Below, one piece after another: positions 1,198 through 42,725 of a stretch of 64,000 nt of DNA. Positions within the stretch are counted from its first letter, which is position 1. The number at the start of each line of letters is the position of its first letter. The stretch comes from an uncultured Tidjanibacter sp. (GTDB taxonomy: Bacteria; Bacteroidota; Bacteroidia; Bacteroidales; Rikenellaceae), in NCBI GenBank assembly GCA_944326085.1, contig CALVCL010000002.1, forward strand, positions 139,867-203,866, written 5' to 3'. The notes under the pieces are model-generated. The model ran no database searches, was not told the DNA's origin, and was given only the letters and a program-made list of their open reading frames with translations. The position numbers were made by a program, and so were the translations under genes.

Positions 1198-2040
1198 ATG
1201 ATAAGCAAGGAACAAAAGGAATATCTGCTTCCGAAAGCCTACAATGCTGCTTTGCGCGCAGGTGCCGCCATTCTTGAAATATACGAAAGCGGTGCTCCGA
1301 TAGACGTCGACATCAAGAACGACCATACTCCGATAACCATGGCCGACCGCAAGGCCCACGCCACAATCAGGGAGTATCTGGGACACACACGCATACCGCT
1401 TTTAAGCGAGGAAGGACGCGAAATGCTCTACACCGAACGCAAGGACTGGGACCTGTTCTGGCTGGTAGACCCTCTGGACGGTACGGTGGAATTCATCAAG
1501 GGCAACGGTGAATTTACCGTCAACATAGCCCTCATGGCCGACTACCGACCAGTATTCGGAATAATATACGTACCCTACAGGAAGCTTATGTATTTCTCCG
1601 ACCCTGACCGCGGAGCATTCCGCGCATGCGACATCAAGGCCGACCCGCAGGCCGAATACGGTTACGAAGCAATATTTGCCGGCACAGAGAAACTGCCGGT
1701 AACGGAACATATCAATTCTCCACTGCACATTGCCGTAAGCCGGTCACACAGTAACGATGAGACAGCACAACTCATTGCGCGTGTTACGGAGGATTACCCC
1801 GATGCCACAATAATGGAACAGGGAAGTTCTTACAAATTGTGCTTAGTCGCAGAAGGAAGCATCGATTACTACCCACGCACATCGGATACATACGAATGGG
1901 ACACTGCAGCCGGAGAGGCCATAATCGAGGCAGCCGGCGGACGCATCTATTCACTCAAGGATGAGTCCCTGCTTCAATACAATAAAGCATCGCTCGTAAA
2001 CCCATACTTCGCATGCCGAAGCAAGTGGTTCCCGAAATAG
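1198..2040 (+). CDS. cysQ: 3'(2'),5'-bisphosphate nucleotidase (inositol monophosphatase family)
   Basis: LLSEEG, WLVDPLDGTVEF, EWDTAAG and YNK motifs. Confidence 0.9.
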   Translation: MISKEQKEYLLPKAYNAALRAGAAILEIYESGAPIDVDIKNDHTPITMADRKAHATIREYLGHTRIPLLSEEGREMLYTERKDWDLFWLVDPLDGTVEFIKGNGEFTVNIALMADYRPVFGIIYVPYRKLMYFSDPDRGAFRACDIKADPQAEYGYEAIFAGTEKLPVTEHINSPLHIAVSRSHSNDETAQLIARVTEDYPDATIMEQGSSYKLCLVAEGSIDYYPRTSDTYEWDTAAGEAIIEAAGGRIYSLKDESLLQYNKASLVNPYFACRSKWFPK

Positions 2041-2055
2041 ACAAACCGATAATTA

Positions 2056-2094
2056 TGACAACGGTCCGTGGAATTGTTCCACGGACCGTTGTCA
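2056..2094. terminator. Bidirectional terminator-like hairpin between convergent genes
   Basis: Perfect 18-bp inverted repeat tgacaacggtccgtggaa-ttg-ttccacggaccgttgtca. Confidence 0.7.
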
Positions 2095-2110
2095 GTTACG
2101 CCCACAACCG

Positions 2111-2371
2111 TCACTTCCTGTGTGCATCCGTAGTGCAGCTGCTGCAGTCACCGCCGCAGACATTGACATCGCACGATGACCCGTACAACTCGTTATCCAG
2201 TTCGCGTGTTTCCTGTATCACGCATTTGATACCGCGTTCACGCATGTTTTCATTCTCGCTAATCTCGGACTTTATATTATGTCCCTTGAAAATGAGCGTC
2301 AGTGACATGGCCACTACAAAAAACGCCACAACGCCTACGGATATAAGTATCACTAACAATGTTGACGACAT
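2111..2371 (-). CDS. Small membrane-anchored protein with Cys-rich C-terminus, function unknown
   Basis: N-terminal hydrophobic helix; C-terminal CDVNVCGGDCSSC; occupies its own slot between a terminator and the divergent trkA promoter. Confidence 0.7.
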   Translation of the reverse strand: MSSTLLVILISVGVVAFFVVAMSLTLIFKGHNIKSEISENENMRERGIKCVIQETRELDNELYGSSCDVNVCGGDCSSCTTDAHRK

Positions 2372-2454
2372 AACGACAGTTTACCGAGCCGCTCCTTAAC
2401 GGCAATGTAATGCAATTAATCGGCCACAATTGGCCGAAACCGCTGTAAAGTTAT

Positions 2455-2462
2455 TAATTTTG
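2455..2462 (+). promoter_or_regulatory. -7 element upstream of trkA
   Basis: TAATTTTG about 30 nt before the ATG. Confidence 0.5.
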
Positions 2463-2491
2463 TATCTAAAATCCGTATAAACTTTTCTCCA

Positions 2492-3829
2492 ATGAAAATA
2501 ATAATCGCAGGTGCCGGTGAAGTGGGAAGCCATCTCGCACGTATGCTGGGAAGCGAAGAGCACAGCATTACAGTGATAGACAGCGACCCCAAACTGCTTG
2601 ATGACATCAACGGGTTAGCAGACATTGTTACCATTGAAGGAGACTGCACGACATTCGCAACCCTAAAGAAGGCATCGGTCCGCAAGGCCGACCTTTTCAT
2701 CGCCGTAAACCACGAAGAAAATATCAACATAATCTCCGCTATACTGGCCAAACAGCTCGGCGCCCGAAAATCAATTGCCCGAATAGACAACAACGAATAT
2801 CTCGAACCGAACAACAAGGAGATGTTCATGAACATGGGTATCGACTATCTTTTCTACCCGGAGAAGGTCGCTGCCCGCGAAGTAATTAATCTGCTCGGTC
2901 ATACCTCGACAACCGAATACGTCGACTTCTCCGGCGGACGACTCACACTTGTTGTTTTCCCCATAGGCCAGTCCTCCGAATTCACTGGCAAGACCGTAGA
3001 GGAAGTTCATGCCATGGGCGGGGGAGTATTCAGGCCGGTGGCAATCAGCCGCGATAACAAGACCATTATTCCACACTCGCATGACATGTTCTACGATGGG
3101 GATACGGTTTATATAATCACCGACAGCAAGGCTGCAAAAACTGTCATGAACTACTCCGGCAACACCAGTGTTCCCATAAAGAACCTGATGATACTAGGCG
3201 GCAGCCGCATCGGAGTGCGCATAGCCATGGAACTGCAGGACGAAATCAACGTAAAACTAATCGAATACGATGCAGACAAGGCATATCGTCTGGCAGAGAT
3301 GCTCGACAAGGCTCTCATCATAAACGAGGACGGGCGCGACATAGACGCCATGACTGACGAGGGTATCACCAACATGGACGCTTTCGTCGCTGTAACGGAA
3401 CGTTCCGAAACCAACATACTCACCGCCATGCTGGCCAAACGCATGGGAGTAAAAAAAGTTATTGCAGAAGTAGAGAATCTTACCTATATAAACCTTGCCG
3501 AAAGCATCGGAATTGACACAATAGTAAACAAAAAGCAGATAACCGCAAGCCGTATATTCCGTTTCACCATGGATACCGATGTACAGGCTATCAAGTGTCT
3601 CACAGGTAGCGAAGCCGAGGTGCTCGAGTTTGTGGTAAAACCCGACTCTCCAATCACCCGCTCATCACTCCGCGATGCCGGTTTCCCAACTGATGCCACC
3701 ATAGGCGGCATAGTGCGCGGCGACAAGGTGTTTATTCCAGATGCCGACTTCCGTGTAAATCCATACGACCGCGCAGTGGTATTCTCGCTTCCGGGTGCCA
3801 TACCAAAAATAGGCAAATACTTCAACTAA
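2492..3829 (+). CDS. trkA: Trk potassium transporter regulatory subunit
   Basis: Two RCK-N/RCK-C repeats; GAGEVG and GGSRIG nucleotide-binding loops; 445 aa. Confidence 0.95.
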   Translation: MKIIIAGAGEVGSHLARMLGSEEHSITVIDSDPKLLDDINGLADIVTIEGDCTTFATLKKASVRKADLFIAVNHEENINIISAILAKQLGARKSIARIDNNEYLEPNNKEMFMNMGIDYLFYPEKVAAREVINLLGHTSTTEYVDFSGGRLTLVVFPIGQSSEFTGKTVEEVHAMGGGVFRPVAISRDNKTIIPHSHDMFYDGDTVYIITDSKAAKTVMNYSGNTSVPIKNLMILGGSRIGVRIAMELQDEINVKLIEYDADKAYRLAEMLDKALIINEDGRDIDAMTDEGITNMDAFVAVTERSETNILTAMLAKRMGVKKVIAEVENLTYINLAESIGIDTIVNKKQITASRIFRFTMDTDVQAIKCLTGSEAEVLEFVVKPDSPITRSSLRDAGFPTDATIGGIVRGDKVFIPDADFRVNPYDRAVVFSLPGAIPKIGKYFN

Positions 3830-34495: not shown

Positions 34496-35109
34496 GTGCC
34501 GCTGTCAAGATAACATTAGCCGAACCGTCGGTAATAATCCGCAGTGGCATTATCGCCGTCCTGAACGGTGCCGAACGCCTAAAGGCAGAAATTTACGAGG
34601 TCGGAGAAATCGACCAGCTCAAATCCGCACTGTCCAGACAGCACCCAGACATACTTCTGGTCAACCCTGCCACGCTTGGACTGTTCTCGCTGCAGCAACT
34701 TAAAAAAGAGACATGCAACACGGAAATGAAATGTGTCGCACTTCAAATTTCCATGACTGACCATGCCGCATTGAGAAACTACGACGAAAGCATATCGGTG
34801 TATGACAGTATCGAAACAGTAATCGAAAAACTCTCCAAACTCATCAACAAGCCCGAACGCGACAACCGTCACGAAACACTATCGGTTCGCGAAAAGGAGG
34901 TCATCGCCTGTGTTGTACAGGGACTGACCAACAAACAGATAGCCGACAGGCTATACATCTCCACCCATACTGTCATCACCCACCGACGCAATATATCGTC
35001 CAAGCTCGGAATCCACAGTCCCGCCGGCCTGACAATATATGCAATAGTTAACAAACTCGTAGAGTTGGATGACATAAAGGACGTTGTCGAAGAACAAATC
35101 CCAGATTAG
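34492..35109 (+). CDS. LuxR-family regulator with an atypical receiver domain (CdhR-like)
   Basis: HTH LSVREKEV...GLTNKQIADRLYISTHTVITHRRNI; Asn in place of the acceptor Asp (DILLVNP); 4-nt overlap with the hemerythrin gene. Confidence 0.85.
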   Translation: MSAAVKITLAEPSVIIRSGIIAVLNGAERLKAEIYEVGEIDQLKSALSRQHPDILLVNPATLGLFSLQQLKKETCNTEMKCVALQISMTDHAALRNYDESISVYDSIETVIEKLSKLINKPERDNRHETLSVREKEVIACVVQGLTNKQIADRLYISTHTVITHRRNISSKLGIHSPAGLTIYAIVNKLVELDDIKDVVEEQIPD

Positions 35110-35202: not shown

Positions 35203-35493
35203 TCAGGCCTTAACGTAACGGTTGACATGTCCCGACTCCACCAGTCCGCTTTTTTTTGCCATCCATTCAGCAAAATGCGATGATGCGTTGTGCAAAGCCA
35301 CCGCATCCGCATCCCTCCACTGCTCTATAAAGCAGAACGCCGACGGGTTGGCCATATCCTCGTACAGGTCATATGAAATATTTCCGCTCTCGGCACGGCT
35401 GCCGGCAATCAACGGCTCCACGGCCGTCAAAAATTCATTCCTCATACCTGGTTTGACCAAGTTTCTCGCAACTATCGTAATCATCAGTTCCAT
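35203..35493 (-). CDS. ABM-family putative quinol monooxygenase
   Basis: SRAESGNISYDL, FIEQW, HNASSHF. Confidence 0.88.
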   Translation of the reverse strand: MELMITIVARNLVKPGMRNEFLTAVEPLIAGSRAESGNISYDLYEDMANPSAFCFIEQWRDADAVALHNASSHFAEWMAKKSGLVESGHVNRYVKA

Positions 35494-35605: not shown

Positions 35606-35639
35606 TAGTTTGAATTCCCAAACAATACAACATACATTT

Positions 35640-39222: not shown

Positions 39223-39618
39223 ATGGCAGAAGAAGTTGAAAAGACCAGATACTCGGACGAAGAACTCGCCGAATTCAAGGCGATAATACTCGACAAGCTC
39301 GAGAAGGCAAAAGCCGATTACGAATTGCTGCGTTCGTCGATAACCCATACCAGCAGTAACGACACGGAAGACACCTCACCCACGTTCAAGGTATTGGAGG
39401 AAGGTGCATCGACACTGTCGAAAGAGGAGTCTGGACGTCTTGCCCAGCGACAGCTCAAGTTCATCCAGCACCTCGAAGCGGCTCTGGTACGCATCGAGAA
39501 CAAGACATATGGCATCTGCCGCGAAACAGGCAAACTCATCCCAAAAGAAAGGTTGAGAATTGTACCCCATGCGACCCTCAGCATAGAGGCCAAAGAAAAC
39601 ATGAACAAAAACAAATAG
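39223..39618 (+). CDS. TraR/DksA-family transcription factor (Bacteroidota type)
   Basis: Coiled coil with acidic tip NDTED; ALVRIENKTYGICRETGKLIPKERLRIVPHATLS. Confidence 0.88.
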   Translation: MAEEVEKTRYSDEELAEFKAIILDKLEKAKADYELLRSSITHTSSNDTEDTSPTFKVLEEGASTLSKEESGRLAQRQLKFIQHLEAALVRIENKTYGICRETGKLIPKERLRIVPHATLSIEAKENMNKNK

Positions 39619-39653: not shown

Positions 39654-39693
39654 ATAAGACAAACGGCAGGGATTACCCTGCCGTTTGTCTTAT
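39654..39693. terminator. Bidirectional terminator between dksA and copA
   Basis: Perfect 18-bp inverted repeat ataagacaaacggcaggg-atta-ccctgccgtttgtcttat. Confidence 0.8.
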
Positions 39694-39707: not shown

Positions 39708-41902
39708 CTATTTCTTCCATTTAAGACGCAGACTGTTGCTAACCACGCTTACACTGCTCAATGCCATGGCAGCACCGGCTATCATAGGATTTAACAGAAA
39801 ACCGTTCACCGGATAAAGTACCCCTGCTGCTACAGGCACGCTGATGATATTGTAGATAAAAGCCCAGAAAAGGTTCTGGCGTATAGTACGCACAGTCTGT
39901 ACGGATATGCGTATTGCCACCGGTATTTTCCGCAGGTCGGATGATACGATGGTCATATGTGCGGCATCCATTGCAATGTCACTGCCGCGCCCCATGGCTA
40001 TGCCAAGGTCTGCACCGGCCAATGCCGCACTGTCGTTTATTCCGTCGCCTACCATGGCCACGACATGCCCCTCGCTGCGCAGCGATGCCACAAAACGAGC
40101 CTTCTCATCTGGCATCGCCCCTGCACGGTAATGTACAATACCGGCACGCGCGGCTATCTCACGTGCAGTGGCTTCATTGTCACCGGTAAGCATGTAAACT
40201 TCTATACCACAGTCGCGAAGCTGACGAACGGCTTCAACCGAACCTTCCTTTATCTCGTCGGCGACAGCCAGCACACCCAGCACCTGTCGGCTGTCGGCAA
40301 ACCATATTACCGTCTTGGCCTGCGACGCCCATTCATCGGCCTTGGCTGCAAGGTCCGCCGCTACAGACACAGACGCCATCATCGAACGGTTGCCTGCCAT
40401 ATATCTCTCGCCACCTGCCGTACCGCACACTCCAGCACCGGTAATACTTCGGAAATCCGTCACCACTACGCCACTCTGCGCAAAATGCGCCACGACAGCC
40501 TCGGCCAGCGGATGTTCCGACATGGCTTCCAAGGCTGCCAACACGGGAGCGTATTTCCCGCAGTCTTCACACCACGCCTCGTTGGTCACCACCGGATGTC
40601 CCGCCGTAACGGTTCCCGTCTTGTCGAGCACTACCGTATCGACCTTACGCGCCACCTCAAGACTTTCGGCATCCTTAATTAATATGCCATGACCGGCAGC
40701 CTTGCCGATGCCGACAGTAATCGCCGTTGGAGTGGCAAGTCCCAACGCACATGGACAAGCAATAATCAATACCGTCACAAGGGCCAGAATACCGTGCGTC
40801 AGACCGCTCTCGGCATCCAAAACAAGCCACAGCACAAAAGCCAGCAGTGCAACAACCATGATTGTCGGCACGAATACAGCGGCCACTTTATCAACAAGTT
40901 TCTGTACGGGGGCCTTGCTCCCCTGCGCATCCTGCACCATACGGATGATGCGCGCCAACAGCGTGTCAGTACCGACTTTCGCAGTACGGAACGTAAGGCT
41001 GCCTTTCTGGTTGATTGTTCCGGCAAACACCTCCGTACCTTCTTCCTTGAGCACTGCCACTGGCTCGCCGGTCAACATACTCTCATCGACATACGAACTG
41101 CCAGATACAACAGTACCGTCAACCGGTATGCGGTCGCCAGGTTTGACAATCACCGTATCGCCAATCTTCACTTCGGCTATAGCCACCCTGCGCTGCATGC
41201 CGCGGTCATCGACAAGCATCACAGTGTGCGGCTGCAGTCCCATAAGTTTGCGTATTGCCGATGTTGTGCTGCCCTTCGCACGCTCCTCCAACAGCCGTCC
41301 CAGCAATATGAAGGCTATGATTACGCTGGAGGCCTCGAAATAGACATGAGGCTCTATTCCGCGAGAAAGCCATACTGACGGGAAAAGCATGTTGAAAAGA
41401 CTGAAAAGATATGCGATGCCCGTACTCGGCGCAACAAGCGTATCCATCGTCACGGAGCGGTGTCGGAGCTGTTTCCACGCATTAACAAAGAAGCCCCTCC
41501 CGCACCAGAACAATACCGGTGAGGCGAGGAGCCACATAATGTAGTTGGCGTATGGCATGTCCATGAAAAACATGCCTATCACGGCCACTGGAACCGAAAG
41601 GACTATTGCCCAAACGGTATGCCGTTTAAGGTCTGCTACTTTTTTTTTTGAATTTCGTCGAGAGTGTCGGCTGCGGCGGACTGGTCCTCTATCACGAGGT
41701 CATATCCGGCATTGCGCACCACATCGCGGAGTTTTTCAGGCGACATCACGGCAGGGTCATACTCCACCGACAATTCGGCCGATGCAAAATTGACAGCTGC
41801 CGATGCCACTCCGACAGCATTCTTCACTGTAGTCTCCACCCTGTTGGCACAGGCGGCACATCCCATCTGAAGAACCGGGAATACTTTCTTTATGGTTGAC
41901 AT
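39708..41902 (-). CDS. copA: Cu(I)-translocating P1B-1 ATPase, interrupted by a frameshift at an A10 run after the N-terminal HMA domain
   Basis: HMA GCAAC in ORF 41636-41902; TGEP, CPC, DKTGT, SEHP, GDGIND, YN and MALSS in ORF 39708-41588; adding one A joins them as ...EIQKKKVADLKRHTVWAIVLSVPVAVIGM..., about 731 aa. Confidence 0.9.
41609..41649 (-). other. Candidate -1 frameshift/slippage cassette (A10G, UAG, 3' hairpin)
   Basis: Minus strand CAA AAA AAA AAG TAG; 8 nt after the AAG lies CTTAAACGG-CATA-CCGTTTGGG (9-bp stem with two G-U pairs). Confidence 0.5.
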
Positions 41903-42032: not shown

Positions 42033-42602
42033 CTAAACCTCGTCGAGAGGACGCCGCCCCATGCTTCCCGAGCGTTTGAATTCGCTGGGCGACACTCCGG
42101 TTACCTTCTTGAACTGTGAGCTGAGATGAGCCACGCTCGAATAGTTCATCACCTCCGCGATTTCGCTCAACGACATTTCGTCATACTCAAGCAACTCCTT
42201 GACACGCTCTATTTTCTGTGCTATGAAATACTTCTCCAATGTCACACCCTCCGACTCGGAAAACAACGCACTTATATACCCATAATCATGATTAAGACGA
42301 CTGGCAATATAATCCGAAAGGTTTGTCCTAAGGTCACCGTTGTCTCTGTGGACAAGTTCTATCACAAGAGTCTTCACCTGTTCCACAAGACGCTCGCGGC
42401 GTCCATCTATCAGTTCGAAGCCCAATTCATGCAACCTCACGGCAAGACCGTCGCGTTCGCCAACCGACAGCGGACGCGACAACACGGCTGAACCGAGCGT
42501 CACCTCCAACGGTTCGAAACCCATCTCCTGCAACAGGCCGCGCACAACCATGACACATCTGTTGCAAACCATATTTTTGATATGTATTTCTGTTCCGTCC
42601 AT
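42033..42602 (-). CDS. AraC-family regulator with an N-terminal HMA-like CxxC sensor
   Basis: IHIKNMVCNRC N-terminus; C-terminal HTH (LSEIAEVMNYSSVAHLSSQFKKVTG); immediately upstream of copA. Confidence 0.88.
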   Translation of the reverse strand: MDGTEIHIKNMVCNRCVMVVRGLLQEMGFEPLEVTLGSAVLSRPLSVGERDGLAVRLHELGFELIDGRRERLVEQVKTLVIELVHRDNGDLRTNLSDYIASRLNHDYGYISALFSESEGVTLEKYFIAQKIERVKELLEYDEMSLSEIAEVMNYSSVAHLSSQFKKVTGVSPSEFKRSGSMGRRPLDEV

Positions 42603-42725
42603 ACCTGTTACCGGCACACGCACCACAATGCAAATATAAACATTCGTCCGGCAAATCACATATCCGAATATGGCGAACCGGCAAATTACCGCTATCTTTA
42701 CGTTTTAAACCGTCCTGCTAATTTT

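Follow-up and report, generated by a model that had tools for sequence, protein, structure and literature searches.

In Escherichia coli, -1 frameshifting in the copper ATPase gene copA makes CopA(Z) (Meydan et al. 2017; Drees et al. 2017, summarised in PMC5009743 and PMC7558416), and the signal for it combines a slippery sequence with an mRNA pseudoknot and the nascent chain (PMC7558416). Here, we describe a copA gene of an uncultured Tidjanibacter sp. from a clade of gut bacteria, located in a 64,000-nucleotide (nt) stretch of contig CALVCL010000002.1 (referred to as the window; coordinates of the gene are window positions, on the minus strand). This gene is probably expressed by programmed recoding, such that a CopZ-like protein would be made by default and the full pump after a one-base slip. 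The likeness to E. coli copA lies in the gene family, in the position of the recoding site after the N-terminal HMA domain and in the production of a soluble HMA protein and a pump from one gene. An in-phase heptamer after the first HMA domain is likewise present in Tidjanibacter, although its sequence differs from that of the E. coli site. The textbook example of chaperone-plus-pump recoding is E. coli copA; the Tidjanibacter gene would reverse the default and use another, far simpler signal. In E. coli, the pump is encoded in the zero frame and the shift yields a 70-amino-acid chaperone, whereas in Tidjanibacter the chaperone-like protein is encoded in the zero frame and the pump would be reached by the shift. 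The E. coli site is aided by a pseudoknot, while the Tidjanibacter site consists of a run of 9 to 11 A's (A9-A11) with an adjacent stop codon and no conserved structure, and transcriptional slippage is a serious candidate for its mode of action.

The layout of the Tidjanibacter gene is shared with the two-open-reading-frame, or 'reversed', dnaX genes (Antonov et al. 2013, PMC3711429), in which the short product results from plain decoding and the long, essential tau product needs a slip on A10 or A7-A9. In both cases the split is deeply conserved, but gene and function differ. Slippage in Thermus thermophilus dnaX (Larsen et al. 2000, cited in PMC3711429) takes place on A9, so that an element of at least nine A's is common to the two genes. 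A full-length protein made from an interrupted open reading frame (ORF) through polymerase infidelity, as proposed here, is known from Citrobacter rodentium tssM (PMC4256274) and from endosymbiont poly-A tracts; those cases are strain-level or associated with decay, whereas the Tidjanibacter split is ancient and selected, and its short product has a plausible function. The gene described here would combine two known kinds, copA recoding and the dnaX type of two-ORF gene with a poly-A run. A literature search returned only copA recoding of the E. coli type (PMC5009743, PMC7558416), though subscription journals could hold another case, and the text and available supplements of the 2013 survey of conserved frame transitions contain no copper ATPase cluster (PMC3711429).

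Architecture of the split copA gene

The gene and its junction comprise the following features:
41636..41902 (-), ORF1: 88-amino-acid HMA (CopZ-like) protein with the metal site MGCAAC, ending ...DEIQKKK followed by TAG
41640..41649 (-), A10 run (T10 on the plus strand), the candidate slip site; the genome has just one other A/T10 run
41639..41645 (-), in-phase -1 slippery heptamer A_AAA_AAG, read directly, in the phase of ORF1, with its G at 41639
41636..41638 (-), ORF1 stop codon TAG, in the 'shifty stop' position directly 3' of the heptamer
39708..41648 (-), ORF2: body of a Cu(I) P1B-type ATPase, 646 codons in the -1 frame relative to ORF1, reading KKKVADLKRHTVW...LRLKWKK and a stop
41574..41639 (-), stretch from the run to the first ATG, VADLKRHTVWAIVLSVPVAVIG, 22 ORF2-frame codons covering the linker and the first half of helix MA

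Read directly, the zero-frame 3' end of ORF1 is CAA AAA AAA AAG TAG. The first-pass annotation of this DNA had placed a split of copA at A10-G-UAG, with a zero frame encoding an 88-amino-acid HMA protein, and both coordinates and translation agree with this; A_AAA_AAG forms the last two codons before the stop (41645..41639), in phase with ORF1, as it had also stated. No stop interrupts the -1 frame between 41651 and its end at 39708; within it, AAA AAA AAA GTA GCA GAC... translates to KKKVADLKRHTVW..., and the frames of ORF1 and ORF2 overlap only via the A-run. When the two were joined by one additional A or by a -1 shift, a protein of 731 amino acids was obtained with no gap, matching the seamless ATPase of about that length that had been anticipated. 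An A8 run said to sit in an in-frame gene was misplaced, since the only other homopolymer of at least eight in the window is a T8 at 35250-35257, which is intergenic: one ORF ends before it at 35109, and ileS starts after it at 35610.

The joined protein scored 596.5 bits against TIGR01511 (cut-off, 397) and 603 bits against TIGR01525 (cut-off, 346), and ORF2 matched PF00122 and PF00702 in a profile search. The signature set of P1B-1 ATPases consists of TGE, CPC in transmembrane helix 4 (TM4), DKTGT, HP, GDGxND, N-x6-YN-x4-P (TM5), and M-xx-SS (TM6). All of these motifs, including GDGIND, are present in the translation, within the segments MLTGEP, IIACPCALGLATP, LDKTGTVT, SEHPLA, MVGDGINDSAAL, NLFWAFIYNIISVP and AMALSSVSVV. 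The nearest solved relatives are Legionella CopA (3RFU; E value, 1e-171) and A. fulgidus CopA (3J09). The alignment with 3RFU runs straight through the junction (residues 80-728 against 69-732), which places the A-run at the boundary of the HMA domain and helix MA. In line with this, the joined Tidjanibacter protein aligns gap-free to continuous homologs as well as to 3RFU and 3J09.

Conservation of the junction and selection on both frames

Among 47 Tidjanibacter species genomes, copA was found in 11, seven of which form one group with 76-82% amino-acid identity. The gene is split at the identical point in all seven species of that group, and the core C-A10-G-TA(A/G) is identical in all of them, with flanks that have diverged (nucleotide identity, 63-85%). 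The A10 run was found again in three metagenome contigs that match three of the split species (L132, L133, L135), in four Logan contigs of one further species (L214-L217) and in one contig of another (L218). A strain 99% identical to the window (L213) carries ATT-A11-G-TAG, the result of a C>A substitution that leaves the gene out of frame, and a more distant lineage (L212) reads CTA AAA AAA AAG TGA, with A9, another stop codon and an unchanged -1 relation. The split state is accordingly present in the seven clade species and at least three further lineages, including independent metagenome assemblies. As the A9, A10, and A11 variants all preserve the -1 relation, the conserved unit is not one run length but a run of at least nine A's, a G, a zero-frame stop and the ATPase in the -1 frame. 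The alignment of orthologs that the first-pass annotation had proposed for the break and the heptamer thus shows both to be conserved in at least 10 lineages; A_AAA_AAG is kept in every lineage, the A9 and A11 variants included. At the protein level, a search with ORF1 returned twelve stand-alone products ending ...KKK (eleven protein clusters), all with the identical end position. In a collection of 5.8 billion proteins, every close relative was called from ORF2 alone; these calls make up 8 clusters (53 members) at 97-99% and seven or more clusters at about 78% identity.

Pairwise synonymous divergence (dS) among the seven split species is 0.45-2.7 and hence saturated, and the ratios of nonsynonymous to synonymous change (dN/dS), 0.05-0.35 for ORF1 and 0.07-0.20 for ORF2, reveal purifying selection on both. 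A 14-nt junction core is identical in the seven species despite these saturated synonymous sites, and the genome holds just two A/T runs of 10; taken together, this makes the junction far beyond what chance would produce. Codon usage at the site is also unusual. CAA stands at the site in 9 of 9 lineages, compared with 12% of the Gln codons in these genes (0 of 15 in the gene of the window), and GTA, the ORF2 codon that overlaps the stop, in 9 of 9 lineages, compared with 16% of the Val codons. The position of the stop is invariant and its identity variable (TAA in 7, TAG in 2, and TGA in 1 of the lineages). The excess of CAA and GTA over their usage elsewhere, with all three stops in use, indicates selection on the site. 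These data bear directly on whether the split could be an artefact or a sign of decay, namely, a homopolymer assembly error or a recent pseudogene. Homopolymers are error-prone, and one genome would be insufficient to exclude such an error; however, the junction is repeated across many independent assemblies and species, and ORF2 is intact over 646 codons with a dN/dS of 0.07-0.20 at saturated dS. The assembly indel or recent inactivating slip that had been raised for this locus is ruled out on these grounds, and the chance that artefact or decay explains the split is vanishingly small.

In a maximum-likelihood tree, all split genes fall into one clade (support, 100/99), and on this phylogeny the split state has a single origin. 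For comparison, continuous homologs were sampled from 80 loci of named genomes and 80 metagenome loci of the same subfamily. A single continuous ORF with the HMA domain in frame, which is absent here, was found in 77 of the 80 named-genome loci and 77 of the 80 metagenome loci (154 of 160), all at 74% identity or less; the sources include Bacteroides, Phocaeicola, Alistipes, Sphingobacterium and others. The linker H-E-K-K-[Y/F]-x-x-L-K is common to the continuous homologs and is encoded by GAA AAA AAA TAC/TTC/ATC in some of them, suggesting that an in-frame A8-A9 run predated the split at this position. A slip of the E. coli kind in continuous homologs with an in-frame A7-A9 linker run was considered and rejected, as the cases are few and the distance to the post-slip stop is inconsistent. 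One copA homolog with 72% identity (L137, OGMI01000791.1) has a stop in the ATPase frame 38 codons upstream of the match start and no long A-run. The near-identical loci L136, L138, and L139 are open at this stop; L137 may have acquired a nonsense or frameshift mutation, or it may reflect an error.

ORF1 matched PF00403 with 54.7 bits (cut-off, 24.8) and is a small stand-alone HMA protein with an MxCxxC site and a conserved stop position. A genome-wide search of the 1.69-Mb genome found no second HMA domain, which extends to the whole genome the earlier observation that no separate copZ lies at the locus, and ORF1 is the sole HMA domain in 7 of 7 split species. Most other Tidjanibacter species are without this copA and instead have another small, stand-alone HMA gene, its open frame spanning about 110-165 amino acids. 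The presence of ORF1 as sole HMA domain in the split species, and of another small HMA gene elsewhere in the genus, fits a role both as soluble Cu(I) carrier and as N-terminal domain of the pump. ORF1 corresponds to the metal-binding domain of CopA, made as a separate protein; in its predicted role it is CopZ-like, but it does not belong to the CopZ families.

The locus could also be read as two ordinary genes, a copZ and an N-terminally shortened copA whose translation would begin at an internal start (GTG or ATG), for instance when ribosomes re-initiate past the ORF1 stop. Gene callers do render it as an 88-amino-acid HMA gene and a 609-635-amino-acid ATPase, and some CopA proteins work without a metal-binding domain. 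However, the gene of the window offers its first ORF2-frame starts at codons +20 (GTG), +22 (GTG) and +25 (ATG), within the hydrophobic TVWAIVLSVPVAVIGMFF. In the split species, the ORF2 frame is devoid of ATG, GTG, and TTG from the upstream stop to codons +14 to +25, and the only conserved start, the ATG at +25, falls halfway along helix MA; the downstream ORF alone would indeed begin inside the first transmembrane helix, as had been noted from the window. The intervening stretch VADLKRHTVWAIVLSVPVAVIG (21-22 codons) has a dN/dS of 0.175, with variable sites at 10/10/20 of 22 for the three codon positions, and is homologous to the linker and helix MA of continuous CopA proteins and of 3RFU. 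Since this stretch is under purifying selection in the ORF2 frame and has no start before mid-MA, it appears to be translated and to be reachable only by a frame change from ORF1. The frames overlap just through the A-run. Two separately initiated genes are therefore a very improbable explanation of the locus.

Two contigs carry a restored frame. In one (L249, positions 1501-3705; a G006-like strain, single Logan contig of SRR31242784), the run is A11 and the gene is in frame. In the other (L250, 1501-3702; a G041-like strain, 280-kb ENA scaffold, ERZ16268195), A10 is kept and C6 replaces C5 24 nt upstream, the additional C restoring the frame via an altered linker, TPRGPRRTAKKKV. Both are tips of the tree with branch lengths of 0.002-0.004 beside split genes, and each could be a genuine but short-lived locked-on allele or an error in a homopolymer. 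DNA-level phase variation, in which replication slippage would toggle the pump ON (A11 or A8) and OFF (A10) and the short product would be a by-product, could draw on these two alleles, one in frame by A11 and one by a C added to the nearby C5, and on the mutability of A10 tracts. Nevertheless, phase-variable copper export, which the first-pass annotation had offered as an alternative, is disfavoured and in our view quite improbable. A contingency locus would show run lengths that differ by indels, with ON and OFF alleles. Here, the OFF frame is the consensus in each of the 7 species genomes, in 8 or more independent assemblies (metagenome or Logan) and in 15 or more protein clusters with over 100 member sequences, L249 and L250 being the sole exceptions. 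Run-length differences between lineages arose by substitution with the frame relation kept (A9, A10, and A11 all -1), the in-frame alleles are short tips next to split genes, and selection acts on the adjacent stop and the GTA codon, which an ON/OFF tract would not need. The product, moreover, is a housekeeping pump of the cytoplasmic membrane and no surface antigen. An ancient out-of-frame backbone with rare recent restorations is expected if the split state is selected and is the opposite of a contingency locus.

Polymerase and ribosome as candidates for the slip

The conserved out-of-frame junction in at least 10 lineages, the selection on both ORFs, the single origin, the lack of an ORF2 start and the lack of any other HMA gene together support the reading of copA as a recoding gene. 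The comparative evidence also favours the order of products first suggested for this locus, a chaperone by default and a pump by recoding, the inverse of E. coli. Slippage itself, how often and by what mechanism it takes place, and the chaperone function of the short product are what we infer from sequence. Under programmed recoding, standard decoding would stop right after the A-run and yield an 88-amino-acid soluble CopZ-like HMA protein, carrying the cell's only HMA domain. In a fraction of expression events, a shift by one base on A9-A11 would yield the 731-amino-acid CopA, with the same HMA domain as its N-terminal metal-binding domain. The most likely step would be a stutter of RNA polymerase on the T-run template that adds one A and gives an A11 mRNA. 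Ribosomes that slip by -1 on A_AAA_AAG while the A site holds the stop codon may add to this or even account for most of it. Either route would lead to the identical protein, ...QKKK-VADLK.... With one promoter, probably controlled by an AraC-type regulator, the ratio of chaperone to pump would be set by the slip frequency, with the chaperone in excess.

Slippage of RNA polymerase on A runs in bacteria is described in PMC3711429 and PMC1088944. In E. coli reporters, poly-A runs caused a frame change of 63% (A11), 40% (A9), and 10% (A7), and two-ORF dnaX genes with A10 have been attributed to transcriptional realignment (PMC3711429). The Tidjanibacter copA gene shows the corresponding combination of a conserved run of at least nine A's at the frame junction with two ORFs under selection, and the holding of the run at nine or more A's in all lineages points toward RNA-polymerase slippage. 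To our knowledge, runs of 9-10 A induce slippage in all bacterial RNA polymerases tested.

The only other A10 run of the genome is the tau/gamma site of dnaX (contig C5, 87939-87948; ...LCGMGQKKNSLE, GGT CAA AAA AAA AAT AGT). One additional A at this site gives ...GQKKK-TAG, and one A fewer gives a stop two codons later. All 25 Tidjanibacter genomes, and 4 of the 5 further Bacteroidales families sampled, have a run of A9-A11 at this point of dnaX; its length and 3' context vary. By analogy, the dnaX A10 run is a tau/gamma slippage site of the Thermus type, a known kind. Here the long form is in frame, and a slip would give the short form, with a stop right after the run in the frame reached by one additional A; copA has the opposite arrangement. 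The conserved A9-A11 run of dnaX implies that the lineage already tolerates or exploits such runs.

The same two products would arise if the frame change were mainly or purely ribosomal, through a -1 slip on A_AAA_AAG or on an overlapping A_AAA_AAA stimulated by a slow stop codon, with transcriptional slippage negligible. A heptamer with the stop directly after it is the classical 'shifty stop' arrangement. Here the in-phase heptamer is kept in every lineage, including those with A9 and A11, and the G and the adjacent stop are fixed in position, with the identity of the stop variable. Slippage dependent on run length requires neither, so that the invariant G and stop indicate a ribosomal component. 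In the subclade of the window, there is also a weak hairpin 8 nt downstream:
41609..41630 (-), hairpin CUUAAACGG-CAUA-CCGUUUGGG of the first-pass annotation, judged to lie outside the conserved signal

The arms of this hairpin (41630..41622 and 41617..41609) form 9 bp, two of them G-U, with a free energy of -8.8 kcal/mol in isolation, and the pairing is absent from the minimum-free-energy fold of the 66-nt context. Eight and seven of the nine pairs are kept in the two nearest lineages and 5-7 of 9 (about -1 kcal/mol) in the other six, and the hairpin is lost in 6 of 9 lineages. The alifold covariation term was positive (+0.94), giving no covariation support, and the contexts folded no better than shuffled sequences (z, -1.9 to +0.7). 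Third codon positions downstream of the run are variable at 20 of 22 sites, and therefore free to vary rather than held by synonymous-site conservation of the hairpin. A search of Rfam found no known RNA family at the junction; the sole match (E value, 0.24) was a spurious microRNA hit to a terminator hairpin at 39654-39693. The 9-bp hairpin reported 8 nt downstream is thus present in the window but does not hold as a conserved part of the signal.

Several observations weigh against programmed recoding in the form proposed here. There is no conserved downstream structure, as judged by covariation, context folds, third positions and the hairpin across lineages. The genome has tRNA-Lys(CUU) besides tRNA-Lys(UUU), which should weaken tandem slippage on A_AAA_AAG, as in the E. 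coli precedent. Strict conservation holds for the G behind the run and for the stop next to it, neither of which is needed for pure transcriptional slippage, and the two frame-restored contigs leave room for DNA-level switching or locked-on alleles. Finally, ORF1 falls below the curated CopZ cut-offs (NF033795, 46.8 bits against 91; NF033794, 44.3 against 95; TIGR00003, 35.3 against 62), and the label 'chaperone' for its product denotes a predicted function.

The first two of these points also speak against a frame change by the ribosome alone, with a covariation term of +0.94 and 20 of 22 third positions variable on the one hand and the presence of tRNA-Lys(CUU) on the other. In addition, A's outside the last heptamer are conserved and the run is held at nine or more, though this also makes a second heptamer, and because polymerases slip on 9-10 A, some A11 mRNA would be hard to avoid. 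Conservation of CAA was considered as a discriminator of transcriptional from ribosomal slippage and set aside: the constraint is real, but CAA also creates the second in-phase heptamer, A_AAA_AAA. Transcriptional slippage is more likely to be the main route, with a real chance that both routes contribute, and a mainly or purely ribosomal mechanism is possible but doubtful.

Copper export and the neighbourhood of copA

If copA is recoded as proposed, coupling of chaperone and pump by recoding would have evolved more than once, and the gene would be a natural case of an important membrane transporter that depends on a slip for its synthesis. Shine-Dalgarno-based translational coupling is little used in the phylum to which Tidjanibacter belongs. 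The public annotation of the locus, an 88-amino-acid HMA gene and an N-terminally truncated ATPase, would then need correction. The proposal is directly testable, as the type species Tidjanibacter massiliensis is cultured (PMC5328704) and a G006-like genome has the same A10 site. We also consider, as an unlikely extension, that the A-run and shifty stop might serve as a tunable and evolvable valve on copper export, beyond a device of fixed ratio. Slip frequency would then set the abundance of the pump after transcription initiation, and could respond to nucleotide pools, RNA-polymerase elongation factors or the availability of release factor. One-step mutations such as A10 to A11, or a C added to C5 (compare L249 and L250), would be locked-on alleles that might be selected transiently, for example in copper-supplemented livestock guts.

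A regulator gene lies directly upstream of copA on the same strand:
42033..42659 (-), AraC/HTH_18-family regulator with an N-terminal CxxC segment (NMVCNRC); PF12833 at 53.4 bits, and PF00165

This neighbour is kept in L213, L214-217, L218, L249, and L250 and was found in all related loci with enough flank. Its N-terminal segment, IHIKNMVCNRCVMVVRGLL, resembles a CxxC metal site, and PF00403 gives no match to it. The AraC-type protein likely regulates the copA locus and may be a copper-sensing activator.

On its 3' side, copA converges with a DksA/TraR-type zinc-finger gene (39223-39618). This gene was considered as a conserved modulator of slippage and rejected, since it is absent 3' of copA in six other split species and in L250. 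Between the two convergent genes lies a strong inverted repeat, AAGACAAACGGCAGGG-ATTA-CCCTGCCGTTTGTCTT (39657-39692), which is probably a bidirectional terminator.

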